Translations under genes and position numbers: made by a program | Assembly: GCA_008632985.1 (NCBI GenBank) | Contig: QPGO01000064.1 | Span: 310,001 to 374,000, forward strand | Direction: 5' to 3' | Length of the DNA stretch: 64,000 nt | From: Psammoneis japonica | Taxonomy: Eukaryota | The notes under the pieces: model-generated | What the model saw: the letters and a program-made list of their open reading frames with translations, nothing else | Database searches by the model: none | Told to the model about the DNA's origin: nothing | Shown: in pieces, positions 1 through 19,054 of the stretch | Layout of the letters: each line of letters opens with the position of its first letter | Position numbering within the stretch: position 1 is the first letter of the stretch

Positions 1-1666
1 CCATGATCAACCTCAAATAGTATTTGCCTTGTTGTAGTTTAACTTCGCCCAGATGGACTAGCTGATATTGGTCGAGGCCACCCGTAAACGGTAACATAAC
101 AGTTGGCAAGCTGCCAAGGTCCAATCGAAGTTTCTTTCCCTCCTTCCGGGTAGCCAAACGAGCCGTGAAACGATACGTCCCGCATCCAAGTTGAACATTC
201 TTGTATTCCAACCACTCCCCCTTCACCGTCCAGCCAACATACCAACCACTGTTGTCCCTAAGCTTGCCCACATCCAATTCACGATCAGCGTAATGACCCC
301 CGAGGTTGGCGGGGGTGGTATCGTTAAAGGCATCAGCACCCTCCGCCTGGAACTTCAACGTTTCGGGAAATGGGTCGGCATGTTCCCGTACAATGTTGAT
401 GTACTGGGTTGGGTATTCCCAGTCCAAGCTACGGTAGAACCCAGCACTCTCGGCCATGTTTGTCCATCCCTCTAACATAATAAAACTTGCGTCCTTACCT
501 GCTTCTAGCGCCTTGGATAAGGTTGTCCCATTCCGCCTGGTCACTTCACGACACGCGGTTCCACAACCAGGGTCGTACTCTCCACCATTGCGAAAAGAGG
601 GTGTGACACAACCCCACCTGGCGTTGTTATAGTCGATATACGTGTAAATACTCGATGCATCATCATGGACGGGCCTGAACCAATCATGCGTTCCTACGGC
701 AAGGCTCGAATTAATGGTGGAGTCTTGTTCAAACCAATCATCTTGAAGGATCAAGGCGGGTTCCCTGCCATACCGCTTCAGGAACTCGGCAATTATGTAC
801 GCAAGCATTTCGGATGCATTACCCTGTTGGTTGGAGAAGAACCTATCACGCAAGTTCCAAAATGCTATAACAGGCTTTCCGTCAATAAGAAACCACATGT
901 CCTCGGGTAGCGTGTCGAACCAAATCATGATATTGAGATCCCAAAAATACCTCCAATTGTTGCGATTGGAGAGATCAAAGGGTGTTCCGCGCGGAAGGTC
1001 CTCTAGATGCTGCCTTGCCTTGTTGTAAACGCCCGTGTCATCCCACATACCAACCTTGAGAGCATGGCGGGCTTCAGCACGGTCCACTGCAGAGACAAAC
1101 TTTTCTAAATGACGAGGACACAAGTCGCCTTGGCCCTCCAGACCTGATGTAGCATTGTAGCATCCTCTGCCATGAAACAGAATTACATCGACTCTCGATA
1201 AGAGCAACTCGTCCACCAAATAATTCCAATATTCATCATCGTCGCGGTTGAGCGTTTTGTAAAGCGGCAGCTCATACCGACTATCCGGCCAGTCGCTTGC
1301 GTCCCTCCACGTATACGCTGTGATGGGTGCAATAATCGGTCCGTTGCTTTCGGGCCTCACCAAGATTGTGTCAGAAGCACGGACTTGCTCGTTGTCGCCA
1401 AAGCATGGGTTGCGTTCAATGTTCCCGCAGCCACAATTTCCAGGTTCGAATTTCTCAGGGTCGTCGGGACACAGGTCAACGCATGGGTCTTGCTCAGGAT
1501 TACCGCAGCCACACTCCCCGGGAAACGTCTTGTTGGGATCCTCAGGACACAAATCAATAACAGGTGCTACCGCAAGCGAATAAGAGTAATGAGAGGACGA
1601 TGCGGTGGGAACAACTGCGATTGCAAGAACGAGCAGCGGCAGTAAGCTCGGAGTTCTTGATCGCAT
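1..1666 (-). CDS. Secreted DUF5010-like (putative glycoside-hydrolase-like) protein with N-terminal DxCPxDPxKxxPGxCGCG repeats and C-terminal CBM6-like module; 3' end runs off the window
   Basis: Manual translation from ATG at 1666 stays open to base 2; it is absent from the ORF track because there is no stop in the window. Signal peptide MRSRTPSLLPLLVLAIAVVPTASS; repeats DLCPEDPNKTFPGECGCG and DLCPDDPEKFEPGNCGCG; core YWNYLVDELLLSRVDVILFHGRG...FWDLNIMIWFDTLP...GKPVIAFW; CBM6-like GWYVGWTVKGEWLEYKNV..GTYRFTARLA. No introns. Confidence 0.8.
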   Translation of the reverse strand, partial: MRSRTPSLLPLLVLAIAVVPTASSSHYSYSLAVAPVIDLCPEDPNKTFPGECGCGNPEQDPCVDLCPDDPEKFEPGNCGCGNIERNPCFGDNEQVRASDTILVRPESNGPIIAPITAYTWRDASDWPDSRYELPLYKTLNRDDDEYWNYLVDELLLSRVDVILFHGRGCYNATSGLEGQGDLCPRHLEKFVSAVDRAEARHALKVGMWDDTGVYNKARQHLEDLPRGTPFDLSNRNNWRYFWDLNIMIWFDTLPEDMWFLIDGKPVIAFWNLRDRFFSNQQGNASEMLAYIIAEFLKRYGREPALILQDDWFEQDSTINSSLAVGTHDWFRPVHDDASSIYTYIDYNNARWGCVTPSFRNGGEYDPGCGTACREVTRRNGTTLSKALEAGKDASFIMLEGWTNMAESAGFYRSLDWEYPTQYINIVREHADPFPETLKFQAEGADAFNDTTPANLGGHYADRELDVGKLRDNSGWYVGWTVKGEWLEYKNVQLGCGTYRFTARLATRKEGKKLRLDLGSLPTVMLPFTGGLDQYQLVHLGEVKLQQGKYYLRLIM

Positions 1667-1730
1667 CTTCTATCTTCTCATGGCAGTGCGGCAGTGCTGA
1701 ATCCCTATCTCGAGTCTCGGCTGTTTGCGA

Positions 1731-2029
1731 TACTACAAATTGCAAGACAATTGCGCGATTCACGTGCCCGAAGGTGGAATATCGTTGCCCGAAGCAACAT
1801 TCTCCCTTCGCGCAGATGTCAATTCTACGTATGATGTGGTATCAAAATTTTCATTTTGGTCCCAGTCATTTCATCAAATGACCTTGTGGTACTCTCCTAC
1901 GTGATCTACGAAAATCGGAGCTTCGGGCTGGCTGGTACATTTTCTACAGGCTCTACGTGCGCGAAGCTCGAATTTCAACAATCACCCTTCGGGCACGTGA
2001 ATCGCGCAATTGTCTTGCAATTCGTAGTA
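1731..2029. mobile_element. Putative MITE (~300 bp) with 44-bp terminal inverted repeats bounded by TA
   Basis: 1731-1774 TACTACAAATTGCAAGACAATTGCGCGATTCACGTGCCCGAAGG versus the reverse complement of 1986-2029 differs at 1 position; non-coding interior; TA at both outer ends as in Tc1/mariner target duplications. The right end abuts the assembly gap. Confidence 0.6.
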
Positions 2030-2216
2030 NNNNNNNNNNNNNNNNNNNNNNNNNNNNNNNNNNNNNNNNNNNNNNNNNNNNNNNNNNNNNNNNNNNNNNN
2101 NNNNNNNNNNNNNNNNNNNNNNNNNNNNNNNNNNNNNNNNNNNNNNNNNNNNNNNNNNNNNNNNNNNNNNNNNNNNNNNNNNNNNNNNNNNNNNNNNNNN
2201 NNNNNNNNNNNNNNNN
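2030..2216. other. Assembly gap (N run)
   Basis: Run of N characters. Confidence 1.
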
Positions 2217-5200
2217 CTCTCCATGGGAAATCGCCGGTTTTGCCAATGTCTGCCTCGCGCACCAGGTGCAGGTTTGTCTGCTGCTGCTGCAGCTGGAAAC
2301 CTTGCCATCCACCCAAGTTTCTGAAGGTTGACTGTGGGTGTTTTCCAACACATCACAAGATTGAGAGCCACCGCTGCAGCCACCACCACAGCCGCTGCCC
2401 TCTTGGGAGTTGTGTGCATGTGACAAGAAGGAAGCTGAGACAAGAAGAGAACAGCGCCGGCAGCCAAGCTCACAAAGAGGTGGTTGGCATGCCAGCCTGG
2501 AGGTCAGGCAAGTTCCAAATGTGCATTTTGAGTCTGAAGTTGATGCCGCCAGCACAAAACCACCATGCAGCTCCGTCCCACTGCACAGCACTTGTTGTGT
2601 GGGCTGCGATTGCCACTTTTCTTTCACTGCGCGCAGGTGTCAGCACAAAACAAACGCAATGGAAATGAGGTGTTTGCAGCCATCAGTGACAAACAACACA
2701 GTCACAACCATCACACCAGCATGGCAACATGAACATGATGCTTTCTCAATGACAACACCTTCAAGAAGCCCACAACAATCTGATGAAAGATGCGACACAA
2801 AGTCACACACAAAAATGTTCAAAGTTCCAGCGAAATGGGCTTGTTGGGGGGGGGGGGGGGCTGCGGCAACCAACAAGGAACAGTGTCACAAGACAACATT
2901 TTTTCTTTTCTTTTGATCAAAAATCAAAAACACTTTTCAAAGTGTGCTTTGGCACTGACTTGTGAGTGACATTGACACCTGTTTTGTTCCAAGTCAAAAA
3001 ATGCAGCAAGGGATTGTCAGTGCCAACATTGTCTTCATGCTGTCACAGCACAGTGTGCCATTGTGCTGACACAGATGCTTTGTGCATGTCTGAGCAATTG
3101 CTCAAACTTGCAGCAAGTTTGAGCAATTTGAGCAAGAAATGGTCATGCCAGTTTTTGAGCAATTGCTCAAACTTTTAATTGGAAAAGTCAAAAGACTGGA
3201 GCTCTCAGTCATGACCATCAAACATTGCTTGGTGTGGCATTGGCTCATTTCCATTGTCATTTTGTGCATGCAGCCAAGTGTTTGAGCAGCAGTTTTCCCA
3301 CATGGTGCTGAGGATGCACACGAGCATTTTTGGCAAAGCCACAGACAAGAGGATCTCCAGAGCTTGCTTGTCCAGTGCTCCAGCGGATCCATGTGTCATC
3401 ATCTGGGTGGGGCCGTGTGACTTTCTCCTCTTTCTTGCCAGCACATGTGTTGTTTGCTGTTGCTGGTTTGCGGGAGCTCTTTGGCTTGTTGCTTCTGACA
3501 CTCTGGTCAAGAGCAAAGCAGAAAGGAGTGCAAGACTGTTGCAAATGGCCCTCATCTTGTCTCACATTTTGAATTTTGTGAGATGTTTTTTTGGCCCAAG
3601 CTCAGACACAACAGTGTTTGTTCTGCTCAAGTGCAGAGAAAGTGGAAGAAGTCATGCTCTTGCTGAGAAGGTTTTGCCCGCCAAGTGTGCCTTGGAAGAA
3701 AAACAGAGAGCCAGCCAGCCAAGCCCCCCGGCAGAGTGCAGTGGCAACCATTTTGAGCTCACTCAGGGTCACTCATTGTTCTGCATGCTTGCAGCAGCAG
3801 TGGGTGCTCTCTTGTGTGGTGTGTGGTGTGTGGTGTGTGGTGGTGTGTGGTGTGTGCATGTGCAGGAGAAGCTGGAGCGCTGTTTCTCTTGGTTTTGGCC
3901 TTTTTGCACTGGCCAAACCACAAGGAGATTTGTTGCATGCCCAAAATGATGTGCTCATGTCAGACACATGCAGCCAGCATCAGACTGGCTGTGTGTCCAG
4001 CCATCAGCCATGCATCTCCAGTGCTTGTTGCCCTCCATGTCACATGAGAAAGCATGCAACCATGCTCTCCTGTGCTGACAACTGGCAAATGCCGGCAAAC
4101 AGCTTGTGACCCAGCTTGTCACCACAGCAGTGAAAGACACATGGTGCAAATGCATGTGCCGCACACACTGCATGACTTGTGCCCACTCTGCAAGCAGATG
4201 TGTGTTGACGCTGCTCTGCACCAGCTGCAAAAAGTGAGGCCAAAAGGTTGTGCACTCTTGCTCAAAATTTGTGCTGGCTGAGCCCACAGATTGTGAGGAT
4301 GGTTGGGATGAACCATCTGGGCAAGGATTTGGTTGGGACAAGCTTGATGCTGTGCTGTGGGGCACAAGAGACAAGAAAGTGTCAGATTTGCAAGAACTTT
4401 TAACATCATGTGGAGAGGATGCCAAATGCACTCACCCAGGAAAGTCAACTGAGAAAGCACAAAGCAAGGGCTTCCAAGGCAGTGAGTTGTGACACAAAAA
4501 CAACAACAAAGACCAGCTGGTGCTTCACAAATCTGATGGAGTTGCTGTCCTGGCTGAGCTCCATGTTCTGTTCCTGTCACAAGATGAAGACCATGACACA
4601 AACAACATGTGTGCACTCACTGGGTGCAATTGTGGTGCCATCCACAGTGGAAGTGAGCTGAGTGGTCATGGACTCACACACCATGGTCATGACAGAGCAC
4701 TTCAAAAGTCAGCAAAAAATCTGCTTGTTGGTGTGATGCACAAATGACCAAGTCCACATTGGGAGAAGTGGCATTTTTGTGTTTGTTCGTTCAGCACTGT
4801 GCTGGGTGCAAGTTCAAGACGAAACATTGTGCACTGTGAAACATGCAGCTTTCTGTGCATTGATGACATTTTGTGTGTTTTTGTCCAGCAGCCAACTCAA
4901 CACATGTGAGCAAACACATGAAATCATCTGAAATGCAACCTCAAGGAAAACCACAACAACTGGCCAAAATCAGGCAAGAATCTTGTTGCGCCCACTGGCC
5001 ACCCACCCTGCAGCAAGGAGCAGGGTCAAACACACAGTTTCAACACTTGCTGCACAGCAGTGGGTTCAAGGCCCAAGACAAGTTTCCACTCCACAGGGGC
5101 CAGCATGTGCAATGCACGTGGCTGCAGCACCCCCCCCCAACAACAAGCCTGAGTCACTGCGCAACAAAGCATGTGCAGTTGACCAAACAGCGACAGGGGT

Positions 5201-7875
5201 TTGGCTGATGCAGCAAACAACAGAGAGCTTGTTGGAGGGCTTCATGTCACAAATGTTTTTTTGGCATGGGACATCTTCCATGCTTCTTTTTTTCTTCCTC
5301 AGATTGTGCAGAGGGGCTCTTCACAGCACTTGTTTTGCATTTTGGTGGTGTGCTTGAGTGGTTTTCTGGTGCACAGCTCACCCTCATTGGTGACACCTCT
5401 GCTTTTGATGGCCTGAGTTGTGCAAAAACTTTCTTCAAGTTTTGGCATGATGGACACAAGAGAGCAACATTGTGCTCAGCATTGTGGGTTGGAGGGGTGA
5501 CAAGCAAGAAGCCCAGAGGCCAAAGAGCAAGAGGTGGCCAAATGATGAGAGGAAATGCAGATCAATGAGTGTGACAACATTTCAAGTTTGTGGCCACTTT
5601 GGCACTTCACTTTGAGGCTGATGACCTTCTCAATTGAGCACTGAGATGCTGTCAACACTTTCATTCATTGCCTTTGCCTCTGCATCTCAAATGGCCGCTG
5701 GTTGCCCCACCTGCTTGTGTCACACTTTGGCTCATGATGCTGCATCAATGTCAGTGTGCATTTGACTCAAGCCTTTTGCTCAGGTTGGCTGATCAGCCAA
5801 TCTTTGAAACAGCCTTCATCGCACAAAATGCACATGCAAGGTCAGCTCCCCTGATTTCTCTCTCTCACACATGCACAAATGAAGCCAGAGTGCTGCTCTT
5901 TTTGGGCATGTGCAAACTCTTTGCACCATGAAGAAACTCAACAGGGTCATTTTTTGAAAACAGCCTGGCAGATTCTTTGATGGAAGAGACAGAAAAATGG
6001 CAAAGCCAAGGGAAGCAAAATGCTGCTGTGCAAGCAGCTTTCTTGTCATTTTGCAACAAATTGTGTTCCTGAGACTTCTTTCTGTGGCATGCTCCAGTGC
6101 CAGGCATGCACACAAAAACAACTTTGTCAAACTCATGTGTCATCATCAGTGTGCTTGCGCAACCATCTCAAATGTCAGTGCCAAAAAAGTTGGTGTTTTG
6201 CAAAGACTGCAAAGGGCTACATTTAGAAGCAAGTGCCCAAAGCAGCGCCCAACAAAACAACAAACATGATTGTCACACTGGTTGGCAGGGCTGCTCTCAA
6301 CCTTGTTTTGTTGAGAGTGATGCGCTGTTCAAGAGCTCTCAAATTTTTGTTTTTAGCTTGCTGGCACCACATTTCTCTTTGCTCAGCTCAGCAACCACAG
6401 GCTTGTGCTTGCACCACAGCAACTTTCAAGAAAAAAGAGTTTCTGCACCCTCTTCTTGGGGCCACCATTCTTTCCACAGCCATTCTAAAATTGTTTGACA
6501 CAAAAGCAACATCCCACTGCACTGAGTGCCAACCAGTTGCACCCAAACTTGTTTGCTTGATTGTTTCTGTGTCTCACAGATCTCCACTTCAGTGATCTCA
6601 TGCACCCTTTGTGTGCAGCAGCTCTGTTTGGGCATGCTGAAGTGTGCCGCAGCTCACTGAGCTTGTTCTTTTTGTCAGTGCACATCACTCCACACACTTC
6701 ATGATGTGTCAACTGGTACCACTTCTGCAGCTGCAAAGTCCAGAGAAGTTGCCAAAAACAACCACACACTGCCATGGACTTGTGCAAAAATGCTTGGCAG
6801 TCAACACAGAAAGGACAAGGATAAAGAAAGAAGGAGGAGATGGCAGATGGCAGAACAAGACAAGAAGTCAAGAAGAAGGCACTGAGGAGCCCCAGCCAAG
6901 ACCTCCAGAAGAAAGAGCACCCAGCTGCCCTTTGAAAAGCTGTCATGGCACATTGCCTTCAGATGCTGACAGGACAAATCAATTGGTCAACGACTTGTCT
7001 GGGCTCTGCAAGAAATCAAAAACTTGGTGTGAAAATCTGTTCTCCTTTTAATTGTAAAGCAATGCTCAGCAGCTCCTTGCACACACAATCCCAGATGCAA
7101 AACAGAGCACACAACATGTGCAAAAACCAAACAAAAGGCACAAAATGGATGGAGGGTGTGCTCTTGCATTGCTTTGCCAAGGGAGAGACAAAGACACAGC
7201 ATCTCAGCAGTTTGTCTTGCACCTCAACAACTTCTGCCCAGAATTGTGCCCATTTGTTGGACTTGCACTCAGCAGAAAGAATTTGATTGGATTCAGTGCA
7301 ATGTAATGGATGAGGTCACTGCAGCTGCAACGTGGGATGAATGAAGCAAATGCAAACACAGTGACTCAATGTGTCATTGCCAAGTGCCTGCATTCTCATT
7401 TTTGTCATTGGTTTGTTGCTCTGGAAGCCACTGTTGGGGAACTGGGAAAAGATGTGCACATGAAGCAACAACTTGCGGCTCATGGTGTGAGACAAGCAAA
7501 AAAGGAAATCAAGCACTGGCACAAAGCAGCAGATGGGTTGCTCAAGCACAAGACAGGAGGCTTGATTGTCAATCCTGCCTTTGCACGGAGACTCAAGAAG
7601 GTTGGTTTGGTTGTTGGCGGTGATCATGGCCAAGACATCTTTCATAAAACCCATCAAGCCAGCCCCTTGTGAGTGCCATGGGGTGCCTGCAACAAGGCAA
7701 CTGATGTCATGCAATGGGTCACAAGGGAAAGCATGGGAAAATCAGGCAGCAGTGCCCATGACATGCAACAGAATGAAGACATGTCAAATTTCTTGGTCAT
7801 GTCAAAAAGCAGAAACCGAGCCGCAAGAGGCAGGGAACACTGACAGTGAGGGCCTTTCTGTTGACAAGTTTTGAG
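2217..7875. mobile_element. Hypermutated repeat/TE-derived tract A (TpA- and CpG-depleted, TpG/CpA-rich)
   Basis: Only about a dozen TA dinucleotides seen by eye in ~5.6 kb; CG rare in the core; dense spurious Cys/His-rich ORFs in all frames; coding relic ...KKVGLVVGGDHGQ near 7600. Confidence 0.7.
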
Positions 7876-8525
7876 GTTAGATTTGACGGATTGTAGATGG
7901 AGTCACTCAAAATCTAAACGAGTCGTGTGACAAGAATTCACGATCGGAAGATTGTGCTTGCTGTGGCTGGAACAATGGTCGGTCTTATCATTGTATACAA
8001 GTAGCAAGGTGAAATGCACCATAGACAAAATAGACAGTGGGAGAATCCAAGGAGGTTCAGACAGTTCCTGTTCGCCGCATCATCGTCTAGCTGCTTTCAG
8101 CAGCTTTCATAGAACCTATTGTCATTTATACTCCAGCAAACTACATTTTCGTTTTTTACATTAAAAATTCAACCATAGAGCTGATGTTGTCTTTTCTGCT
8201 GCGTATAATACGTCTAAAAAGAATACTCATGCAGTTGCAGGTTAATCAACTTGATGGACGAGTGGATAAGTTGTTCTTCTAGCTCGTTCGTCCGAACACT
8301 TTTTTGCCCGCGTTCGCTCCGGCTTTGAGTCATTCAAAAATAGTTCATGTCGCGTCATCCTCGTTGTTGCTTGTAGAATCTCTTTTGTGGATATCTTATC
8401 GTAAATTCGTGGTATACTCGTCGCCATACGAAATTCAACCACCAAATGAGGACGTGTCGAAACGTGTGACAATTTGGCGAACTAGAGGTAGGCACCTGGA
8501 GACTGCTGTTTAAACTCTCAACAAG

Positions 8526-9666
8526 TCAAACTGGTGGAACCATAGTTTGTGGCAAGCTGTGTATCATTTGCCTCACCTGACGTGTGGTAGTTTCTTCATC
8601 CTTCTCCGACTCTCCCATAGCCATGCTGGATAGTGTGAGCTGTTCTTGTTTGATGAGGTCGTCACGTTCCGTCCAATCTTCTTCGCCGTCGTGTTCTTCG
8701 TAGCGTCCGTGTTGTTGCGCCAGGCGTGGAGGTTCCGTCACCAAGTACGATTCATTGCGCTTTTGAGCATAGGCGTACACTTGGGTCAACCAACGGGAGA
8801 AAAAAATGCCTCCAATCGTCAAGGCTATGATTCGCCATGGCCGGGAAATGCTGTCGTATCGGAGAGTTGCAATCTCAGAACATCCCCAAATAGCTCCCAT
8901 GGCACCGCAAACTTCCAAAATAAATTTGGTACATACCACTTCTGTCCACGGAACAATGTCGTTGACAAGTCGTTGATACCATAGATGGCAACGCCTTCTT
9001 CGTGGACACAACAAACAATAGGAAAAGAGCTCCAAGAGCCATCGCGTGCCAAAGAGGACTCCCACGATCCAAGCCGTAACTTGCCAGGCGTAGGAGTTGT
9101 CACTATTTCTCAAAGCCAGGACTTCGGATGCCCCCCACACGGCACCTGCTGCTCCACACACTTGCAAGAGGGCCTTGGCTCCAAACTCTTCCACGCCAAG
9201 GTACCATTGCGATCGACGATCTCGCCGTTTCACGTATGGAAAATCCGGCCGTGTCGCCACACGTGCTTGGCGTGCCAATACAAGCGGATGGTAAACAGGA
9301 TGGCCATCAAAGCGCTGGCACTGCGAAAGCTTTTGGCATTATCAAAGTGACGTAGACCAATCACTTCACCAAACCCCCAAACAGCTCCGGCAGCTCCACA
9401 TACTTCGAGCACGAGTTTGGCAAGTAGGAATCGCACAAATAAGTCCACAGGGACATCCACGACGGGTGGCTTCTGCAGTTCTTGCTCTCGAAAGTCAATG
9501 ACAAACGATGAGCTTGTTGCGACGAAAGCGATGGTCGGTAGAATAAAGATCGACGACTAACATTAGTATCGTCGTCCCAGTCATCGAATACCCTCTCGAA
9601 ATCAGTGGCAGACAATCGGGCAGAGAGATGCCAAACACGTCGAGGAGGACGGGTTGCAGACGCCAT
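8526..9666 (-). CDS. Hypothetical membrane protein with three LxVCGAxGA[VI]WGxxE..LR repeats (two apparent frameshifts)
   Basis: Joining ORFs 9361-9666, 9230-9460 and 8526-9278 gives three copies: LEVCGAAGAVWGFGEVIGLR, LQVCGAAGAVWGASEVLALR and LEVCGAMGAIWGCSEIATLR, each followed by a hydrophobic helix. Confidence 0.7.
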
Positions 9667-10209
9667 GTTGCCTTTGCATGGATAACAACAATAATCGCAT
9701 CACTGATCACTGCATGCATGCAACATGCAACGACTGGTATGAATGATATGGCTCTGTTATGTTCTGTTTTCGAGTATTGATACTTGAGTTCAGAAACCGG
9801 CACGACTTCAACTTGTGACGTGTCAGGATGGGTACGTCAGAAATCGGTGCGGTCTTTCCATCCATACGTCACGGATGCGAATCAGGCAAACCTTTGGAGT
9901 TCAACTTGGGAATCCGTACTCAATTTTAGTAGAATCCTACGTAAAATCGATTAGGACTCTTCTCGCTCGTGTGGATGGTGGGAAAGGCGTTCACCTGTTC
10001 GTGCAACGAACACACACCTGCTGTTGCTAAAGCTTCATCAACCGTATCAGCAACAGAGTATCTTGAAGAGTCTGCAATCGGTATAAGCAACGACATTTGC
10101 AAAAAGTTGGTGGTGAAGGATTCGATAACGAAAAGTCGATCAAAGAGAATAGCCAATCACAAATCACGATAGATCCCATTCGAAAGAAAACCACGAGTCC
10201 AGGAAAAAG

Positions 10210-12492
10210 ATGAAGAGAGCAAGAAGTCAACAAAATAGAACCAGTGCCTCTCCTATGAGTGTGCCATGCGGGGTGCAGAGAAGAAGAAGGACTACAATAT
10301 TTGCCACATCCTCGCTGCTCCTGTTACTTTTGGCGAGACACGCCGACTGTTTCTCAACGAGTGCAGCATTCAGTCGAAGAGCCTGTCCTTCTACGTCGGC
10401 ATTGGCTGTTTCGCAATCTGCCACGCCATTGAAGCCTCGTCGTCAAGCCGTAGCTCAGGCCGTTCAACCAAAGTCATCGATTTCAGCTACGAAACGCCAG
10501 CAGGCCAAGCTGGCTCTGGAGCAGCAGAAAAAGCGGAAACAACAGCAACAGGTGGATGCTCAAATGTTGCAGTTGCTATCAGAACAGTTCTTGTATGCCG
10601 AAGCACCTAAGGAGCGACCACCCGGCCGCCCAGCTTGTGTACCGGGTGCTATGAAGTATGATACAATGATTCAGTATCGCCATCAACAAAGGGAGATGGA
10701 GAAAGAGCAGTTAGATCTCGACCGATTAAATCTCGAGGCTACTCAAACTCCCGCGCAGCAACCGGTGAAGCGCGGACGGGGAAGACCCAGAAAGTCCGAG
10801 AAGGTGGTTGCTACTGTTCCCGAAGCTACGGAAAAGAATAAAAATACCATCAAAAAGAACGGAGTTGCTGCTAAAGTTTCAGCTACCGCAAAGCTGAAGA
10901 AGCCACTGTCCGTGCGAAAGAAGACCATTAAGGGGTCGATGAAGCAGTCAGCCTCGGCAAAGAACAAGAAGATAAAAGAAGTCAAGAAGCGCAAGCGTGT
11001 CGTGAAGAATTTACCCAAATCTCGTGCCACGCTAGAAGAAAGGCAAAAGGACACCAAGGGCATGGGTGTGTTTCCAAAAGGTGACCCGCTCAACTTGCAA
11101 AAGTATTACCGCACCGAATTGCTCACAGCCGAGGAGGAATACAGCTTGGGCATGAAGATTCAATTCATGATGATGTGTGAACATGTGCACGAGGGGCTTG
11201 CAAACAAATTGAATCGGTTGCCGAGTATTCAGGAATGGGCAGAGGCTTGTGGGTAGTTTTGATAAGCGGGTCTGTGAATTTGCATCTGTTGATTGCGCCG
11301 ATGCTAACCCGTGTATCTATCATTCTCTCTCAGATTTGTTGAAGACGATCCTACATTTGTTCCAACCGAAGGAGACGAGCAAATTCGTCCCGCGGGAAGT
11401 GAATCCATGTTTCAAGTTGTTGATCCCAACACTTTTGTTGGCAACGGACTGGCCACCAATGCAGGTCCTGGACGCGGTCGCGGACGAGTCAAGCAAGCAC
11501 CACCCACATTGTTGGAAGATTATTACGATGACTCTGAAGTCAAGTTCAACAAATCCATAGATATCTCGAAAGCGGACTTGAAACCGGTGAATCGAGGTAC
11601 CGCACTCGACTTTGTAGAGAAAATGATGGATTCCCGAACGGCCAAGCAACGCATGGTACAATCCAACATGAGATTGGTCTTGAGCATTGCCAGAAAGTAT
11701 AGCAGGGTCGGCGTCAGCTTACCCGACTTGGTGCAAGAGGGAAGCTTGGGACTTTCGAGAGCTGCTGAGAAGTTTGAACCAAGAAAGGGATTCAAATTCT
11801 CAACATATGCGTCATGGTGAGTACGAAATGCTTGTCAGACGTACCTGCTTCGTTGTTGTGTTTTGGTCTCGCTTATTTATCTGCCCTTCCCTTGCTTTCA
11901 ACAATAGGTGGATTCAACAGGCTGTCTTTCGAGCCATTGCCTATCATTCTCGTACGATTCGGTTGCCAGTCCATGTACACAACCTGATGAATCGTGTTCG
12001 CCGTATTCGATTGTCATCGAACAAGACCTAGGACGGGCACCAACCAATGAGGAGATTGCCGAGCAGCTTGATATGGACGTGCAGAAATTCAACAAAATGA
12101 TGAGTCTAACGAGGCAATCCATTTCGTTAGAAGTCCCAAAGTATCAGAGCAACCCAAAGGATTTCGGTCACGAAAGTGAGGACTTGCTTGGTGAAACGAT
12201 TGCTGCTGAAGTCCTTCAAGACGAAAGCAGTCCAGAAAAGCGAGTTGACCGAGGCTTGTTTCATCGAGATTTGCGAGAGATGCTCAAGATTTTGGAAACA
12301 GACGAGCGAAGAGTGATTTCCGCTCGGTATGGACTGGATGACGGTTTGACAAGAACCGTGACTGCGGTCGCCGCGCAATTGAAAGAATCCAAGTCCTGGG
12401 TACGATCCCAGGAGTGTCGGGCATTGCGTAAATTGCGAAGACCTTGGTATGAGAAACGACTAAAGGAGCACCAGAACTCCTTGGTAAGTTAA
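10210..12492 (+). CDS. Nucleus-encoded plastid RNA polymerase sigma-70 factor
   Basis: Introns 11253-11333 and 11817-11907 (GT..AG) splice to MVQSNMRLVLSIARKY...[54 protein letters not shown] (region 2). Region 4 is ERRVISARYGLDDG...WVRSQECRALRKLR. Signal peptide plus ADC-FS plastid motif. One frameshift at ~12010. Confidence 0.93.
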
Positions 12493-12675
12493 TGATTATA
12501 AAAACTATAGATCTACATTATTGTTGAGTTTGCAAATCGCCAAGTTGGTAGTTCATTTCCTCTCACACAACTTGCTAGCTAGTAGAGAGTCGTTGGACAG
12601 CACGATCAGTGGTCTGAGAAAAGTATCCTAAATTGAATGTGCTACTAAAATCAAGTGCGTAGCAAATGACGTTTC

Positions 12676-13788
12676 TTATTGAGTACGTGATTCTATTCTA
12701 CTGTCTCTGGTTGCTTTCCGTGCCGTGTATCGCACGCCTCCCAGATTCCCACCCTCAAAGAGCTGGTTCATGACGTTGTAAAACTGATACATTGCTTATA
12801 CATGGATGAACCATGCAGCCTGACAAAGTGTTTCTTGTGTCGCATAATGTTCGTGAGGCGTTGTCGAGTCTCCATCGCCCACGCATCCGTCACGTCTGTC
12901 CATGTGACATCCACAAAACCACTGTTCTTCAAAGCTCCGAGATAATCATTCTTGTCGGCCAGCTTGGTACAATACAGCTCGTTTTCTAGTGTGTCGCGTT
13001 CCTGTAATGACATTGGTTCTTTCATGTACAAATCCTCACAGTACAGGAAGCCACCGTCTGGTTTGAGGGTGGAATACAATGTCTGAAAGAGCCTGGTCTT
13101 GTCGGGTATATGCAGAAAGGACAACCAGCTGACCACGCCATCCAACGATCTAAATCGTTCTTTTGCAGATCGATTTGATGGGATACGGTTAGCTTGTTTT
13201 CTTTTTCATCGTGATGCAAGTCCATCACATTACCTAGAACATGATGCACGCGACCTCCGTTTTCAAGCTTGCATTTGCTCGTCAAATCCTGAGCAAGATC
13301 ATGTATTGGGGTCTGAAGCTCCATGGCAATGACAGAGCACCCGGTTGACGAGGCCAAGTGCCTCGAAGGCCCACCCAGACCAGAGCCAACGTCTAAAATG
13401 GTTTGCGAGTTCCAGTTTGCGGCTGAGAGAAGCTGCTTCATCGTTGAAACAGCTTGATCAACAGCACCTGTGCCACCATAATTCATACAGTCAAAACTAG
13501 ACAAGAGTTTGGTATCCAGTAATTGTTCTTTCTTGTCCCGACGTCGATGCAATAAAAATGGAGCTCGCGATGTACTCGCTTCTCAATTCCCGTGTAGAGC
13601 TTTGCGCCATAAATACCGTTATTCACGTCGTTTTCTCTCGTTGGTTTCGCATCTTTCACCTCAACCGTACTACCATCAATGATGTCGCTCGTAACAATGA
13701 CTCCCTTGTCAAAAGGAGACATGGTAAAGATGGAAGAGTTGGGAAATGGTCGGCTACTCGTCGCCATTGCAGCAAAGAGCGTTGGCAA
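12676..13788 (-). CDS. Class I SAM-dependent methyltransferase (sarcosine/dimethylglycine N-methyltransferase-like); about three frameshifts
   Basis: Motif I ILDVGSGLGGPSRHLA, DGVVSWLSFLHIPDK...LKPDGG, N-terminal KLYTGIEKRVHREL..FDCMNYGGTGAVD, C-terminus LFEGGNLGGVRYTARK..TQ*. Start codon uncertain. Confidence 0.8.
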
Positions 13789-14430
13789 TCAATCTTGGAC
13801 CTTGTTTTTGCCGTGCTTTTTCTTGCGGCGCAACGGGTCGTCACACGATTCGCAAATACGGGGACGCACATACCATATGGTACGGTACAAACACGGTGTC
13901 TGTGATAAATAATGGACATCTGGAATGACTTTGACGCGGTCATTCTCTTAAGTACTGTATTTCTACACAGAATCTCAGTATATTTTCTACACCTCGAAAC
14001 ATTTATGGTGCGCTAGTCGTGTTTTATTTTACATAAGTGTGTGGATAATTTATAAATTTTTCTATTGCCTCGAAAATTTCGAAATGGCGGGCTTTGTATT
14101 GCGCGCGCGAGCCGCCCCGCTTCCTTACCGTCTGTACGTCACATCGAACAACTTGAACTTGCATGCATCCAACTCATTTTTCTGTTCCCGCGCTTTCGTC
14201 AGCGGAGATAGAACTAACAACGGACACAAACCTTGTTCTGCAACGAAGCTAGGGGGAACAGGCCCTAATTCCCTTTAAATCGCTGTATCTACCACTGCTT
14301 TTCTGGTTTTCGGCGCTTTCCACTTTACATTTTTCTTTTTTAGATCAAAGTTGTTCGTGTTCAAGAATTCCGTCGCGCAAACCGCACAACAGAAGTTGTT
14401 CTTGCCTTTTGATACTCGCGAATAGCTACA

Positions 14431-15723
14431 ATGACGAGATTCAATACATGTTGTTCGCCAGCATTTGTTGCACATACCTCTTCCAGGCCTAACTTGTTTT
14501 CTCAAGTGACTGTTGTGAGGGAAAGATCATGTTTCTTGCAACAACCCGATAAAGTTGTCCGCCGAACACCAAGTCTTGCCCTTGCGCTTGGCGAAGATGA
14601 CAATGATAGCGAAATTAAAGACGAAGAATCGTTTTTAAACAAGGAGCTAGCGCGACTAGAGTCCCTGGAAGAGTTATTGTCAGAATTAGAGGGTAGCGAG
14701 CTAAATGGAGAGGACGAGGAAGATCTAAATCAAGAAGCACTGTTGGATTTTTTCGATTCGCTGCCAGAAGACGTCGATGATGATATTCTGGCTGAAATAG
14801 AAAGATCGGGTGGTATAGCTGCATTTACTAATGGCGACGACGAAATAGATTTTTTAGAACAACAGGGATTCAGTACAACTGAACAAGATGCTACGTCTCT
14901 GCCTTCGATACCCACGGATTCATTGGAAAACGCATTGTTGCAAGGTGTAGTGCCGGCTGATGCCGGTGTGGGGAGGGGACGTCTTCCGGGGGACTACGGA
15001 TTTGATCCACTTAATCTGGCATCTATTGACATAATTGGCAAAGTTCAACGGTGGGTGTGGAATAAATTACCGGGAGCAGAAGAAGACGGCCTTCACGATG
15101 TAAATGAGAAGCGGCCTTTGGCCTTGATCTTGCGTGATTTACGAGAAGCTGAAATACGTCATGGCCGACTTGCAATGCTTGCAGCGATAATATGGCCACT
15201 ACAAGAAATGTTGGATAGACTTTTACTGGAAGATTATCAGTTTGAAGCCACCACTATTGTCTATGGTGGAGTGACTCTGCCTTACTTCAGTCTCATCATG
15301 ACATTGATAATGTTGTTGTTGGGCTACCTTGATATCTATGCTAATACTGTCAAGGACGTGGACGCAGTTGGAGAAGCCTTCTTACCTGGCGATTGCTTTT
15401 GGGACCCTCTCCGCATGTTGGAGGGTGCTCCTGGGACAATGAAACGCAATATGCAAGAACGAGAGCTACTGAATGGGAGGATGGCAATGCTGGCCGTCGC
15501 TGTGTTCTTCTTTGAAGAAGCAACGACTCATCGTCCGCTCATTACGATACCGGGAAATGAACTTTTGTTCGAACCAGCGTACCAAATACCATATATTCAG
15601 GAGAGGTTGGACGCCATCTTTGCAACGCCGTCTCCTACATTTACACTACCGGAAGTCGGTCCTGTCGATTTCGTAGAGGTGGCCAAGGAGGTAGTACGAG
15701 AGGAAGCCAGTGGAGAGCTTTGA
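14431..15723 (+). CDS. Light-harvesting complex (chlorophyll a/b/c-binding superfamily)-like protein with long acidic N-terminal extension
   Basis: LPGDYGFDPLNL, helix 1 LREAEIRHGRLAMLAA, PGDCFWDPL and helix 3 ERELLNGRMAMLAV. Confidence 0.9.
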   Translation: MTRFNTCCSPAFVAHTSSRPNLFSQVTVVRERSCFLQQPDKVVRRTPSLALALGEDDNDSEIKDEESFLNKELARLESLEELLSELEGSELNGEDEEDLNQEALLDFFDSLPEDVDDDILAEIERSGGIAAFTNGDDEIDFLEQQGFSTTEQDATSLPSIPTDSLENALLQGVVPADAGVGRGRLPGDYGFDPLNLASIDIIGKVQRWVWNKLPGAEEDGLHDVNEKRPLALILRDLREAEIRHGRLAMLAAIIWPLQEMLDRLLLEDYQFEATTIVYGGVTLPYFSLIMTLIMLLLGYLDIYANTVKDVDAVGEAFLPGDCFWDPLRMLEGAPGTMKRNMQERELLNGRMAMLAVAVFFFEEATTHRPLITIPGNELLFEPAYQIPYIQERLDAIFATPSPTFTLPEVGPVDFVEVAKEVVREEASGEL

Positions 15724-15929
15724 CTCTCCTGGTATTTTTTATCCGTTGTGTACCGTGTCTCCTCCGTCACACTTTGTATTTGTACAAAACCACGAGGCCT
15801 AACGTGTCACTGCACACTTAATAGAGAAACATTACCCTGACTATCGTCTCACTTCCAAATAGCTAGTTTACATTAAGAAGTGTATTACGCTTCTAGAAAA
15901 AAGGGTTTTGCTAATTTTGACACATGTCT

Positions 15930-18307
15930 TTATTGTGCGTTCGGGTTGTAACAATAGTCTCTGCCAGGCTTGCCAGCTCCCATGCATCCGGGAATCTTCT
16001 CGCTGCCTGTTGTTGATAAAACATGAAACGCATTCAAATGAGTTACATCCAGTAGACGAGGTTTCATCCAGTAGGAAGAAGAAGAATAGAACATCTTACC
16101 ATTTCTTCTGAAGCATTTCAAGCCTTCTTTACATTCCCCATGATGGTCGCAGTCGCCTATAACCCGAGACAAGTCGGAAGTGGAAATGAGAAACCCTGCG
16201 CAAATGCAAAAGATTGTGACGAACAAGTAGGTCAAACGTTAACTCACCTTGGCACTCGTCCAAGGGAAAATGATGACCAGGGTCTCCGTTGTTCCCAATC
16301 ATAACGAGAACTCCCTTTGGGTATGGAACACAGTAGTCGACGTCGCCAGAGGGTGTCCCTGAACACAGTTGAGAAAGGTTGACAGAAGAATCTCCGTTGC
16401 TTCTTTCCAAGCAGTAGAGACCCGTTTGGCACTGCATATTGTTGTCGCAGTCGCCTTGGCATTCTCCGAGTGGAAACAAATCTTTGTTTGGGGCGTTGCC
16501 AACATATTTTAAAGGTTCCTTTGGCTCGGGTACATTTTCCAGTGGAGGTGGCAACACCGTTTGCCGAGGAGCACGAGGCTTGCGAGGTCTCCTTCTGTTC
16601 CTTTTCCTGCCTGGAGCACGAGTGGGCCCAGGTCCATCGTAGCAGTACCAACCCTTTGTGACGGCGTTCCCGACACAGCCTGGAACTTTCTCTCTTCCGC
16701 GTCGCTTGAAGCATTTCAAATTGCCTTTGCAATCTCTGTTTGAAGTGCAGCCCCTTGGCATTCACTGAGAGGAAACATACTTCGAGGAGGATTTTTCTGA
16801 TACCTTAGGCGCGGAAGAAGAAGAGGAGGCGGGAGGATTATGTTCACCGGTGGCGCGGGAGGGGGCGAAGCTCGAGGTGTGGGATCGGGACCAATAATGA
16901 TCTGTTCCAGCGACCACGTAGTCGGTGGTGGGGTGCTTCCAGGTGGAGGAGCGGGACTACTCCAAGTCTTTTCTTTCGTGTGCTTGCAATAGCCTCCTAC
17001 CTTGTCTCTGTACCTTCCGACTCCGACATCAATATCAAATAGTGTCCTGTTGGTCACAGGATCTTCTAACAATGTCACCTTCAGTGGCGGTGCTGAATCA
17101 CCGTCCTCAACCTCCACGTCCACCAAGTTGCGCACCGGAAATGGATTACTAACGCAGAAGTTGTGCCCATTACCATGAAAGTACATCATCGGGACGTCAG
17201 GATACAAGCCAGCCAACCTTGAGAACGGCGCGCCAAAATGCTTGAGCCTTGATCCTTCGTTGACTTGAGCATGAGCGAAAACAACCACCCCTTTCATACC
17301 AAGTACATCGTGAATTTTGAGGTTACGACGTACCCATTCCACGTTCTGACTGAAGCGCTTTCTTTCATCGCCGATTACGTCACCGCCGACGATATTGACA
17401 CCCATGTAGAGCACTTTGTCCTGGAAGAACGCAAAGTTTTCGTCGCGGGACCTGCCGTCAATTGTTTTGGCGTCAGTATGTCGACTCATCGTTGCCCCCG
17501 ACGTCAGGTTTCCAAACCCATATTTGTTTCCTGGTATAAAAGACAGGGTCATTGAGATGATGGCAAATGAGCAGTCTAATGTATCACTAAACACAGTAAG
17601 GTTCCCTTACCTGGTCCGAAATGTTCCATCCAGAGATCCCAGGCTTCATCAATGTCCTCGCAGTCATTCCTGTAACGGATTTCAAAGATTTTTAAGGAAT
17701 TGCTTCTTTCCAGGGAAATTCGCAGGAGAGATCATGCAGCTGCTTACCATTCATTGTCGCCTGGGACGAATAAGCAGTCGCGAGCATCGTAGTCAACGGC
17801 ATTGTTTGAGTGGGAGAATATTTCAGCAATATCACTGTATGCTTCGCGATTGCATGGATACTCTGGTTTACCAACTTTGATATCTCCGACATGGACGATA
17901 AAAGATGGCGAGCCCGGTGATTTCAGGTCAAGCTCGCGTAGCCTGATGGATCCAGGCAAGCAGGAAAATGAATGTCAGGGTGCGAGTGAGTAAGAGGATC
18001 GAACATTTCCCCTTTTCCATGGTTATACAATACTACTGGGTATTCAAACAGTATCTATCTTCGTACTTGTACGGAGTGTCGCCCATTCCGAAGAAGCTAG
18101 TAATCGGTACCGGTTTTACGCCTGCAGGAAACTTTGGTAAGTTGTCAATAGTGCATTCTGATACCAGCCTTCTAGGATGTTCGTCGTCCCCTGCGCATCT
18201 ATAGAGGTTTTCATCATTGGTGTCCGACGGCTCTCCAATTCGCTGTCCTTTGGTAAGGACCGCACAAGAAAAGCAGAAATCGCCGCGACATAGTCATGAA
18301 ATTTCAT
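15930..18307 (-). CDS. Secreted calcineurin-like metallophosphoesterase fused to Pro-rich linkers and three frustulin-type Cys-rich (ACR) modules (paralog 1; multi-exon, frameshifts)
   Basis: GDTPY, HVGDIK, VPGDNEW/NDC, VVFAH and YFHGNGH metal-binding motifs; ACR modules ECQGDCDNNMQCQTGLYC and ECQ/GDCDHHGECKEGLKC; several GT-AG introns. Confidence 0.8.
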
Positions 18308-19054
18308 TGTGTTAATCTGCTTGGTTCTTCTTCTTACCCCCTTTGTTGACCGTCGAGGCCGTTCCCGTTTTTGTCAGTCCTCTGCCTTGACCAGAGTGAA
18401 AGTGATCAAATCAACCGATCCACACTTGTGTGAGCTGCAAATCGGTTAGAAGCATTTCTAACCCGATTTGACTCAATTTGTTTGCAATGTGCCTTCGCGT
18501 TTTCTTATTGCCCTTTCTACTTAAAAAATGATATGAGAATTAAGAAATGCGGACAATCGTAAATGACCAACAAGGTTAGAATTAAGTAGTCTCAAGTCTT
18601 TGCGGGAAGGGCTATAATTGCGTGACATAAAGAATATGTCAGATCTCGTAAAGAATTATGCGAACGTGTTTCCTCTCGCAGCTTGCAATGCAGTGAGGGG
18701 AAGTTGCTCCAAGATGTGCCCAGTGCTCTCTTCTATCTTTCGCTTCGCACACAAGAGATGCACATGCCTGATTCCCGCGACCTTTCGTTTGGTGCGATGG
18801 CGGCGTAGCATGATAGATGATCAACGAAGTCAACAGCGCGCAAGCGGTACCGTTCTGTGGGGAAATCGTTTCGTGATGCGAAGCCTTAGGTACTTAGGCG
18901 AAAGGGGGTCTCATTTCCTATTTGACCATTCTTCCGTCTCCAATAAGAGTGCGTCTCAATTTCTACAAAAAGTAAAATTACAAGAGCAAGTGTTGTTCTC
19001 TTTAGGTGTACTGTAGATCGAAAAACTAAACAACCCAGTACCGGCACCGGAAGT

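Follow-up and report, generated by a model that had tools for sequence, protein, structure and literature searches.

The one published match that we found to a TpA-erasing process is a 2026 preprint on the chlorarachniophyte Bigelowiella natans (Rhizaria), in whose mutation-accumulation lines integrated viral DNA acquired A:T>G:C changes at TpA only, 230 of the 231 mutations in two hypermutable regions being of this kind (Mettrop et al., bioRxiv 10.64898/2026.01.13.699255). According to its main text, the system hits integrated giant-virus and virophage DNA, an adenine-deaminase mechanism is proposed, and the genome elsewhere contains TpA-poor, CpA- and TpG-rich clusters enriched for reverse-transcriptase and DDE domains (bioRxiv 10.64898/2026.01.13.699255). 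The terms "CpG", "trinucleotide", "flanking", and "diatom" are absent from that main text, and the joint collapse of CpG and the 3′-neighbour preference reported below are therefore, as far as the main text goes, undescribed for B. natans. The tracts analysed here, which are from a diatom, Psammoneis japonica, resemble this system in that TpA is changed to TpG or CpA on both strands within particular regions. Besides the host, they differ in degree and in kind of evidence; the hypermutable virus region of B. natans is reported as mildly depleted (Rho TpA of 0.45, compared to a TA O/E of 0.03 in the tract designated T1 here), and the B. natans rates come from mutation-accumulation lines, whereas the P. 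japonica case is known from sequence alone.

RIP, described in Neurospora and other fungi, also consists of DNA-level, island-limited transitions that kill mobile elements, leave sharp compositional islands, and resemble a defence. RIP creates TpA at the expense of CpA and TpG. As a candidate here, RIP, a C>T targeting of repeats (PMC7296669), was rejected on direction, since TpA is destroyed (TA O/E of 0.03) and CpA and TpG are created (O/E of 1.9). CpG decay in methylated transposons shares with T1 a low CG content (O/E of 0.14), TG/CA products, and limitation to silent islands; the CG deficit of T1 (46 vs 297 expected) is, jointly with that of TA, balanced by a TpG/CpA surplus. Diatoms are reported to methylate transposons, and in Phaeodactylum young elements become de-repressed and methylation disappears upon loss of DNMT5a (PMC9998398). 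However, CpG loss is here strictly nested in TpA-erased DNA, a nesting that ordinary CpG decay does not predict. Hyper-editing by ADAR and APOBEC likewise represents enzymatic deamination directed against selfish nucleic acids, with a reported 5′ U preference for ADAR, but its marks are strand-asymmetric and fall on RNA or single-stranded cDNA, whereas both strands of resident DNA are equally affected here. Sense-only A>G change of the ADAR type was rejected, as TG and CA are symmetric in both T1 and T2 (a retroelement relic described below) and the former Tyr codons divide 4:4.

Composition and boundaries of T1

The window, i.e., the whole 64-kb stretch of contig QPGO01000064.1 that was analysed, contains T1 near its left end. 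The features of this region are as follows:

2030–2216, unstranded: run of 187 N adjoining the left end of T1
2217–7875, unstranded: T1, gene-free, with TA and CG almost wholly converted to TG/CA as judged from composition and a Poisson comparison with background
2217–2870, unstranded: segment A of T1, with no TA and 17 CG (O/E 0.38), the CG being partly kept
2871–6116, unstranded: segment B of T1, the deepest state, with two TA (O/E 0.009) and 18 CG (O/E 0.10)
6117–7875, unstranded: segment C of T1, up to the sharp right boundary, with 10 TA (O/E 0.08) and 11 CG (O/E 0.12)

T1 (5659 nt, 48.0% G+C) contains 12 TA (O/E = 0.03; positions 3176, 4401, 6218, 6224, 6354, 6486, 6717, 6822, 7049, 7055, 7304, and 7645) and 46 CG (O/E = 0.14), together with 648 TG (O/E = 1.88) and 694 CA (O/E = 1.92). 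These counts bear out a preliminary description in which TpA and CpG were said to have collapsed into TpG/CpA over 2217–7875; about a dozen TAs had been noticed by eye, and the six positions named were all correct. In the dinucleotide O/E profile, the right flank (7876–20000) presented values of 0.60 for TA, 0.98 for CG, 1.12 for TG, and 1.15 for CA, placing the TA level of T1 far below that of its flank (0.03 vs 0.60). The composition of all tracts was taken from the assembly sequence at face value, and the window's own non-coding DNA (16,557 nt; TA O/E of 0.71, CG of 1.07) was used as background. From this background, 309 TA and 297 CG would be expected in T1, corresponding to Poisson probabilities of 1.5e-113 for 12 or fewer TA and of 1.6e-73 for 46 or fewer CG; outside the five TA-low tracts of the window, the lowest 1-kb TA O/E was 0.42.

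The right edge of T1 is abrupt; the final TA inside the tract is at position 7645, and the next ones follow at 7878, 7894, and 7915, after which the usual density is found. The 650 nt beyond the edge presented TA and CG O/E of 0.68 and 1.12, in line with the abrupt return of normal composition that had been placed at about position 7876. The left edge is hidden because the N run adjoins the tract; left of this gap (1670–2029), composition is normal (TA 0.66, CG 1.29). Within T1, 17 of the 46 CG are found in segment A, although this segment makes up only 654 of the 5659 nt (p = 7e-6), and 10 of the 12 remaining TAs in segment C (p = 3e-4). A G15 run is located at 2846–2860, close to the end of segment A.

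The combined TA and CG deficit of T1 (548) is matched by an excess of about 563 in TG and CA (1342 counted, where the background O/E predicts about 779), and in silico conversion of TA and CG in the background yielded an O/E of 1.87 for both TG and CA, as compared to the 1.88 and 1.92 observed. Pyrimidine-purine steps have kept their share (0.247 vs 0.238), as they would if only transitions had occurred. TG and CA are present in similar numbers (648 vs 694), and no strand-coordinated runs above background were found (runs z of −2.0 for T1, +1.8 to −2.0 across the tracts, and −0.8 to −3.5 for background). The O/E of GpC (1.39) and ApT (0.70) depart from the 1.05 and 0.90 that the conversion model yields instead, suggesting either an ancestor of unusual composition or the action of another process. 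As no ancestor or less-mutated copy of T1 was found, we infer its conversion from composition and from the neighbouring tracts, which support conversion of both TA and CG to TG/CA through separable losses.

Tract T2 and the order of TpA and CpG loss

Four further TA-low tracts were identified in the window, with no detectable similarity among the five:

25661–30160, minus strand: T2, retroelement relic that has lost its TA but retains most CG (TA O/E 0.10, CG 0.70)
46101–49340, unstranded: T3 (TA O/E 0.04, CG 0.23), no Pfam domain
56501–58640, unstranded: T4, a partial state (TA O/E 0.23, CG 0.55)
61401–64000, unstranded: T5, continuing past the window end (TA O/E 0.13, CG 0.35; core at 62001–64000 with TA 0.01–0.04 and CG 0.16–0.19), no Pfam domain

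T2 has recognizable homologs and was used as a calibration case. Homology spans 26640–29949 and includes a 727-aa ORF (26811–28991) that is longer than any found in 300 shuffles (maximum of 456 codons); the homologs carry RVT_1/RVT_2. The preliminary description had referred to a LINE; what T2 contains is a reverse transcriptase-bearing retroelement relic, a putative LINE. All 80 metagenomic relatives of T2 presented a normal TA O/E (0.47–0.94), and low TA is therefore not a trait of the family.

Alignment columns were considered if 20 or more of the 80 metagenomic homologs covered them. Tyr was treated as conserved where 40% or more of the homologs carry it, and none of the nine columns of this kind is kept in T2; four have become TGC, four CAT or CAC, and one TTC. 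Other conserved residues are mostly retained (17/18 W, 5/5 C, 4/5 F, and 4/6 H), and a single-step A-to-G replacement outside TA was found in only one of 58 conserved D, E, N, K, T, and Q columns. Of 19 conserved Arg, 10 are still encoded by CGN, and two have become CAC. The mutational origin of the TA loss is thus directly demonstrated in T2, where TG and CA are again balanced (388 vs 413). As in B. natans, change in T2 fell almost entirely on TpA (8/9 Tyr to TGC or CAY, 1/58 A-to-G outside TA), a point to which T1 contributes composition and mass balance only, and involved both strands (T1, 648 TG and 694 CA; T2 Tyr codons, 4 TGC and 4 CAY).

Erasure of TpA runs ahead of CpG loss, since no conserved Tyr (0/9) but 10/19 Arg CGN codons were kept in T2. 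Across the window, 96 of 126 500-nt bins were normal, 22 were low in both dinucleotides, eight were low in TA only, and none was low in CG only. The earlier proposal of two convergent processes was supported in part, in that both steps lead to TG/CA and that the losses are separable (Tyr vs Arg in T2, eight vs zero bins, and 17 CG with no TA in segment A). Flanks are spared and the edge is sharp; T2 is a retroelement, and T1, T3, and T5 had no recognizable origin in the searches made.

When the sequence context of the 59 TAs that survive across the five tract cores was compared with that of background TAs and with that of the TG/CA that they could derive from, it differed from both (chi-square p = 4e-9 and p = 3e-4, respectively); these p-values are inflated, as two targets were counted per TA in an analysis of 59 sites only. 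The base 3′ of the target A in surviving TAs was A at 1.94x, G at 1.30x, C at 0.75x, and T at 0.33x, and a 3′ T was under-represented and a 3′ A over-represented in every subset; TAT and TAC are avoided among the survivors.

Candidate processes and their rivals

We consider it likely (probability of roughly 0.75) that T1, which contains no genes and is most likely a dead insert, is an island run near saturation by two mutational processes confined to such islands. The first process would act on DNA and on both strands, turning A:T into G:C within TpA steps, so that TG and CA arise about equally often; its target would be TpA rather than A generally, with the best targets being those in which the A precedes T or C. 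Chemically, a TadA/ADAT-like enzyme may deaminate adenine to inosine or, as a second option that sequence alone cannot separate from the first, thymine may be oxidized and then mispair. The second, slower process would convert CpG to TpG/CpA only within the same islands, with deamination of 5-methylcytosine in silent, presumably methylated DNA as the simplest cause. TA and CG, both palindromic, would drain to the same products, and TG/CA would therefore be doubled. With somewhat less confidence, we favour the view that diatoms have an undescribed DNA-editing defence that erases the TpA of inserted DNA on both strands, with a sharp stop and a preference for 5′-TAY, and that is followed by slower CpG loss, the end state being "TG/CA fossil" DNA that is invisible to homology searches.

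The best surviving alternative, though an unlikely one, is a single island-targeted deaminase of dual specificity, acting fast on A in TpA and slowly on C in CpG; CpG loss would then need no methylation, because one enzyme hits both steps. It would fit the finding of CpG loss only inside TA-erased DNA (none of 126 bins CG-low only), and the tracts would be ordered in the same way if the two rates stood in a fixed ratio and TA reached saturation first. The B. natans preprint further cites ADAT2 enzymes as DNA-acting, with A and C as targets in amphioxus and C in Trypanosoma (bioRxiv 10.64898/2026.01.13.699255). However, the 230 of 231 A:T>G:C mutations at TpA in the two hypermutable regions of B. 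natans are reported with no matching C>T burst, and the target geometries are unlike (3′ purine after T vs 5′ pyrimidine before G). CpG methylation of diatom transposons already provides a sufficient cause (PMC9998398), and CG retention in T1 varies independently, with a CG O/E of 0.38 and no TA in segment A but a CG O/E of 0.12 and 10 TA in segment C.

It is improbable that T1 was never rich in TA or CG, e.g., as foreign or viral DNA or as a structural element selected against both. No ancestor of T1 was found, its GpC (1.39) and ApT (0.70) are unexplained by converting background-like DNA, and joint avoidance of CpG and UpA is reported for RNA viruses (PMC3829696). Yet the TA O/E of 0.03 is far below anything in the window background (lowest 1-kb value of 0.42 outside the tracts), the signature is common to five tracts without detectable mutual similarity, and T2 was demonstrably mutated from a Tyr-bearing ancestor, with 80 TA-normal relatives. 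In addition, the TG and CA surplus of T1 balances its TA and CG deficit, and the ORFs of T1 do not exceed chance expectation, leaving no reading frame for selection to act on.

Slightly less probable still is an assembly or base-calling artefact, in which modified bases in silent DNA were misread as their transition partners. The N gap adjoins T1, and the sole sequencing run found to contain the stretch (as contigs, with 0.62 of sampled words) might represent the data from which the assembly was made. Several points speak against an artefact. Sequencing by polymerase does not distinguish 5mC, 6mA, or 5hmU from the corresponding unmodified base, and T2, although TA-erased, retains an open frame of 727 codons (300 shuffles, maximum of 456), which would not be expected of a sequence full of errors. 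The changes take the form of clean transitions, the edges are sharp, and Illumina data in B. natans are reported to have given the same signature. The weakest alternative, in which retroelement transcripts undergo ADAR-like A-to-I hyper-editing and reverse transcription carries the changes into DNA, would suit the retroelement nature of T2 and the favouring by ADAR of U before the edited A (bioRxiv 10.64898/2026.01.13.699255, Discussion), but one-strand editing would give sense TG without CA, whereas counts are symmetric (648/694 in T1, 388/413 in T2), the T2 Tyr codons divide into 4 TGC and 4 CAY, and whole islands with sharp edges are affected, including T1, T3, and T5, which carry no retroelement signature.

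If two island-confined processes indeed produced the tracts, T1 would represent what a TpA-erasing defence leaves at completion, i.e., DNA of normal G+C, without repeats and of an origin that is irrecoverable by protein or DNA similarity, and part of the unannotatable, gene-free DNA of diatoms might consist of transposons and viruses rewritten past recognition. The process so far described in one preprint on B. natans would extend to diatoms, which are important members of the phytoplankton and are genetically tractable; its presence in both Stramenopiles and Rhizaria would suggest an old SAR-wide system or convergent ones. The tracts would also hold an internal clock, in which TpA is lost before CpG and ORFs, still intact in T2, have disappeared from T1; given the TpA-then-CpG order, islands could therefore be ranked by age. 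The 3′-neighbour preference (erasure most efficient at TAT and TAC, least at TAA) provides a biochemical prediction for the responsible enzyme, and annotation of such genomes may benefit from scans for TA/CG-free islands and their comparison in purine/pyrimidine space.

Possible traces of a former identity of T1

A simple satellite lacking TA, which the preliminary description had named as a competing explanation, was rejected, as Tandem Repeats Finder detected only five small arrays of 25–38 nt in the 5.7 kb. The repeat search of the window placed no repeat family in T1, the 64-kb window contains no second copy of it in letters or in purine/pyrimidine space, and no look-alike was present in the sequence index searched. 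No ORF beyond chance was found, nor any Pfam domain across 64 ORFs or six read-through frames, nor any homolog in the searches made; tblastn of 199 retroelement ORFs against T1 gave one match, whose E of 0.003 is no better than chance given 199 queries. The Pfam result carries little weight, since nothing was detected in T2 either, and RVT_1 was found in just one of four intact relatives. The preliminary description had called T1 an older repeat than the LINE; greater age is consistent with the lost ORFs and deeper CpG loss, but both "older" and "repeat" stay putative, as no ORF beyond chance, domain, homolog, repeat copy, or transposon or viral signature was found in T1. T1 is most likely a dead inserted element, presumably once mobile, whose identity was erased. 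One further feature was identified within segment B:

4201–5250, plus strand: weak 3-base periodicity of purines and pyrimidines with constant phase (power of 6.8, phase equal in both halves)

The most protein-like frame of T1 (4202–5251, plus strand) contains seven TGA and had no match in a word-indexed search or among 1.84 billion representatives; the periodicity at 4201–5250 is possibly the remnant of an old coding frame.

Composition, edges, and mass balance of T1

T1 (window positions 2217–7875; 5659 nt, G+C 48.0%), a tract in which nearly all TA and CG have been converted to TG and CA, was found by dinucleotide count to contain only 12 TA (observed/expected ratio [O/E] = 0.03) and 46 CG (O/E = 0.14), along with 648 TG (O/E = 1.88) and 694 CA (O/E = 1.92); the assembly sequence was taken at face value. 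At the rates of a baseline consisting of window DNA without tracts and without long ORFs (16,557 nt; TA O/E = 0.71, CG O/E = 1.07), 309 TA and 297 CG would be expected in T1 (Poisson P = 1.5e-113 for ≤12 TA and 1.6e-73 for ≤46 CG). The 12 kb to the right of T1 presented O/E values of 0.60 (TA), 0.98 (CG), 1.12 (TG), and 1.15 (CA). The final internal TA is located at 7645 and is followed by TAs at 7878, 7894, and 7915 and by normal density onward; the 650 nt past the right edge presented a TA O/E of 0.68 and a CG O/E of 1.12. The collapse of both dinucleotides and the abrupt right edge claimed in the preliminary description are thus borne out, and all six TA positions that it gave are correct. 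Two possibilities that it had raised against its own reading do not apply: TA O/E in T1 is well below that of the right flank (0.03 vs. 0.60), and T1 is not a simple satellite, since Tandem Repeats Finder identified only five arrays of 25–38 nt. The left edge is masked by 187 N (2030–2216), and the sequence left of this gap is normal in composition. The N run ends exactly where T1 begins, and a run of 15 G (2846–2860) stands close to where the first, CG-retaining segment of the tract ends. One DNA sequencing run (X1, 0.62 of words) and, among the runs listed, no RNA run shared sampled words with the stretch.

The deficit in T1 relative to the non-coding baseline (297 TA plus 251 CG, i.e., 548) can be set against the surplus of TG and CA, which number 1342 as compared to about 779 expected at baseline O/E (surplus of about 563). 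When background TA and CG were converted in silico at random to TG or CA, both products reached an O/E of 1.87, as compared to the observed 1.88 and 1.92; pyrimidine-purine steps keep their share (0.247 vs. 0.238), as expected from transitions alone. TG and CA are about equally frequent, and no strand-coordinated runs of either beyond those of background DNA were found in T1 (runs test, bin dispersion), suggesting a DNA-level process that acts on both strands, not RNA editing of one strand; ADAR-type editing was rejected on this strand symmetry. GpC and ApT presented O/E values of 1.39 and 0.70 in T1, while the conversion model yields 1.05 and 0.90. The neighbours of TA>CA and TA>TG changes raise GpC and lower ApT; by our own arithmetic, about 500 conversions would be required, as compared to about 300. 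This residue may reflect either an ancestor with more TA and less CG than host DNA or a further context effect. The GpC/ApT deviation was also flagged at 61401–64000, and GpC excess climbs as CpG drops across the five TA-poor tracts of the window.

Five TA-poor tracts and the order of TpA and CpG loss

A scan of the window for TA-poor stretches delimited five tracts, all situated between host genes.

TA-poor tracts in the window (as segmented)
T1: 1961–7900 including Ns, core 2217–7875; TA O/E 0.04 (core 0.03), CG O/E 0.17 (core 0.14)
T2: 25661–30160; TA O/E 0.10, CG O/E 0.70
T3: 46101–49340; TA O/E 0.04, CG O/E 0.23
T4: 56501–58640; TA O/E 0.23, CG O/E 0.55
T5: 61401–63980; TA O/E 0.13, CG O/E 0.35

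Host genes in the window encode a light-harvesting-complex family protein, a kinesin, parts of pyruvate carboxylase, and an aspartokinase/homoserine dehydrogenase; those homologs of the antenna protein that bear an organism name come from the diatoms Fragilaria, Nitzschia, and Cylindrotheca (60–65% identity), whereas the best match (71%) bears none, which places the host among the diatoms, with no close named relative among these matches. A host ORF with DUF5010 and CBM35/CBM6 carbohydrate-binding modules (2–1669, minus strand) continues past the window start. An ORF adjoining the right side of T3 (49611–50747, minus strand, 378 aa) matched the ADP-ribosyltransferase families PF03496 (E = 6e-12) and PF01129 (E = 2e-6), which is unusual for an alga, and two long ORFs without a Pfam match (56064–56885 and 60684–61817, both plus strand) overlap the starts of T4 and T5 as segmented. 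A letter-space repeat search of the window found no similarity among the five tracts and placed T1 in no repeat family, and no inverted repeat of 60 nt or longer was found in the window. After recoding into purine/pyrimidine space, in which transitions become invisible, all five tracts were compared with the window by BLAST, and the highest score for T1, 36, fell within the range of 10 shuffles (26–38); local alignment of the left end of T1 with T3 gave a score of 44 (null mean 58).

T2 contains an ORF of 727 aa, while the longest ORF in 300 dinucleotide shuffles reached 456, and is homologous to proteins with reverse transcriptase (RT) domains (RVT_2 in P0003, RVT_1 in P0004; tblastn E of about 1e-40 across 29793–27708).

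Feature in T2
26640–29949, minus strand (ORF 26811–28991): relic of an RT-bearing retroelement, by homology to RT-domain proteins

Relatives of T2 were found at 80 loci in metagenome contigs, many with ORFs of at least 1700 aa, and all 80 loci presented ordinary TA O/E (0.47–0.94); low TA is therefore not a trait of this family. Across the 668 columns in which 20 or more homologs are represented, T2 retains Tyr in none of the nine conserved Tyr columns (i.e., those with Tyr in at least 40% of homologs), presenting instead TGC in four, CAT or CAC in four, and TTC in one. Control residues were largely kept in their conserved columns (Trp 17/18, Cys 5/5, Phe 4/5, and His 4/6), and A-to-G-type replacements outside TA (D>G, E>G, N>D/S, K>E/R, T>A, and Q>R) occurred in only one of 58 conserved columns. 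Since the former Tyr codons are now TGC and CAY at 4:4 and replacements outside TA are few, these columns directly show that TAY codons have been turned into TGY and CAY by a TpA-specific change affecting both strands equally.

At the 19 conserved Arg columns of T2, Arg was kept in 13 (CGN in 10 and AGR in three), while two presented CAC and four other residues. With Tyr at 0/9 and CGN Arg still at 10/19, TpA erasure in T2 is complete and CpG loss only just under way. Among 126 bins of 500 nt in the window, 96 were normal, 22 were low in both TA and CG, eight were low in TA only, and none was low in CG only. Within T1, segment A (2217–2870; the first 654 nt) contains no TA and 17 of the 46 CG (O/E = 0.38, p = 7e-6), and segment C (6117–7875; the last 1759 nt) contains 10 of the 12 TA (p = 3e-4) at a CG O/E of 0.12. 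As judged from these patterns, TpA was lost first and CpG later. The T2 Arg and Tyr columns, the bin classes, and T1 segments A and C also support the earlier proposal that T1 is the end state reached by two processes together; they are likewise compatible with a single enzyme for which TpA is a fast and CpG a slow target, which we consider improbable.

The surviving TAs in the cores of the five tracts (n = 59) differ in their flanks from 1948 background TAs (p = 4e-9) as well as from the contexts of TG and CA steps able to yield new TAs (p = 3e-4); these p-values are approximate, since they rest on few sites and on two targets counted per TA. When the base 3′ of the target A is scored on both strands, survivors show a bias (A 1.94-fold, G 1.30-fold, C 0.75-fold, and T 0.33-fold), and A is enriched and T depleted at this position in every tract subset. 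TAs in the context ATAN (equivalent to NTAT) represent 10 of the 59 survivors, as compared to 962 of the 1948 background TAs. The simplest reading is that conversion would occur most readily at TAT and TAC and least readily at TAA.

Origin of T1

T1 is perhaps a dead inserted element; we consider this its most likely origin, with a probability of about 0.6, because a gene-free block of 5.7 kb stands out in a window so densely packed with genes and because T1 carries the same signature as the retroelement relic in T2. The longest ORF in T1 (244 aa) was matched by 25% of 300 dinucleotide shuffles, and ORFs of 100 aa or longer number 25, as compared to 17.8 ± 3.2 in shuffles; stop triplets number 8 TAA, 2 TAG, and 123 TGA, and ORF lengths are within chance since TGA is essentially the only stop remaining. 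Pfam searches of all 64 T1 ORFs of at least 60 aa (E ≤ 1) gave only unrelated matches at chance level (best, DUF4126, E = 0.0045), and the six T1 frames, read through stops as X, gave one match (E = 0.28). Among the 125 ORFs of T2–T5 with 60 aa or more, the 54 longest presented no transposon domain, and 15 read-through frames from T2 (minus strand only) and from T3 and T5 (both strands) gave nothing under E = 0.095. These Pfam negatives are weak, because T2, a proven relic, was itself missed and RVT_1 was detected in only one of four intact relatives of T2 (E = 5e-4).

No significant match to T1 was obtained by tblastn with the retroelement proteins P0001–P0005 or with 199 ORFs from the 80 metagenome loci; proteins of the T2 family do not align with T1. 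The region 4201–5250 presented a weak three-base purine/pyrimidine periodicity of constant phase (power 6.8). A word-indexed protein search with the frame 4238–4744, covering proteins of 92–296 aa, gave no matches, and an exhaustive search with the most protein-like frame (4202–5251), which represents one of six frames and about a fifth of T1, matched none of 1.84 billion representatives. Rfam and tRNA scans of 2217–3800 and 3870–8500 found none, and three T1 pieces compared with an index of other DNA pieces had no look-alike there.

Relation to known hypermutation and possible mechanism

The effect is striking and real, and the same kind of process has been described once in print; the closest match is TpA-only hypermutation of integrated giant-virus and virophage DNA in Bigelowiella natans. 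In the preprint describing it, 230 of 231 mutations in the two hypermutable regions were A:T>G:C, all at TpA, and TpA-poor clusters also occur elsewhere in the genome (Mettrop et al., bioRxiv 10.64898/2026.01.13.699255). The present case differs in that the host is a diatom, in that depletion is far deeper (T1 O/E of 0.03 vs. a Rho of 0.45 reported there for the virus region), in its nested CpG collapse, and in its context preference; the preprint main text uses neither "trinucleotide" nor "flanking". The present case adds a saturated end state, the order of two losses, and a context bias. Repeat-induced point mutation (RIP) resembles the present process in its defence-like working, but its chemical direction is opposite, so that the tracts cannot be assigned to RIP. 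Full-text literature searches found no account of TpA erasure in diatoms; PMC4504042 was rejected as a TpA report, the matched string being "Tpase".

The sequence evidence shows strand-symmetric transitions at TpA and CpG that are sharply confined to islands, the A-to-G changes being specific for TpA. An enzyme targeted at silent or foreign DNA may convert A:T to G:C at TpA, either by deaminating adenine to inosine or, as we suggest, by oxidizing thymine so that it mispairs with G; sequence does not separate the two, since an A>G change is equally a T>C change of the complementary strand. In the natural tRNA substrate of TadA/ADAT, U precedes the edited A, which would fit the TA rule. Mettrop et al. 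(bioRxiv 10.64898/2026.01.13.699255) suggested an ADAT2-like deaminase as the agent. CpG loss would most simply result from deamination of 5-methylcytosine, since transposons are methylated in diatoms (PMC9998398). Candidates for island recognition include RIP-like repeat homology, small RNAs, chromatin state, and the insertion event itself. Some metagenomic relatives of the T2 retroelement (loci L018, L020, L021, L025, and L043) presented a CG O/E of 0.5–0.6 with normal TA and with TG clearly exceeding CA on the coding strand (e.g., 1.56 vs. 1.23); CpG loss in these loci is strand-asymmetric, unlike the symmetric loss in the window.
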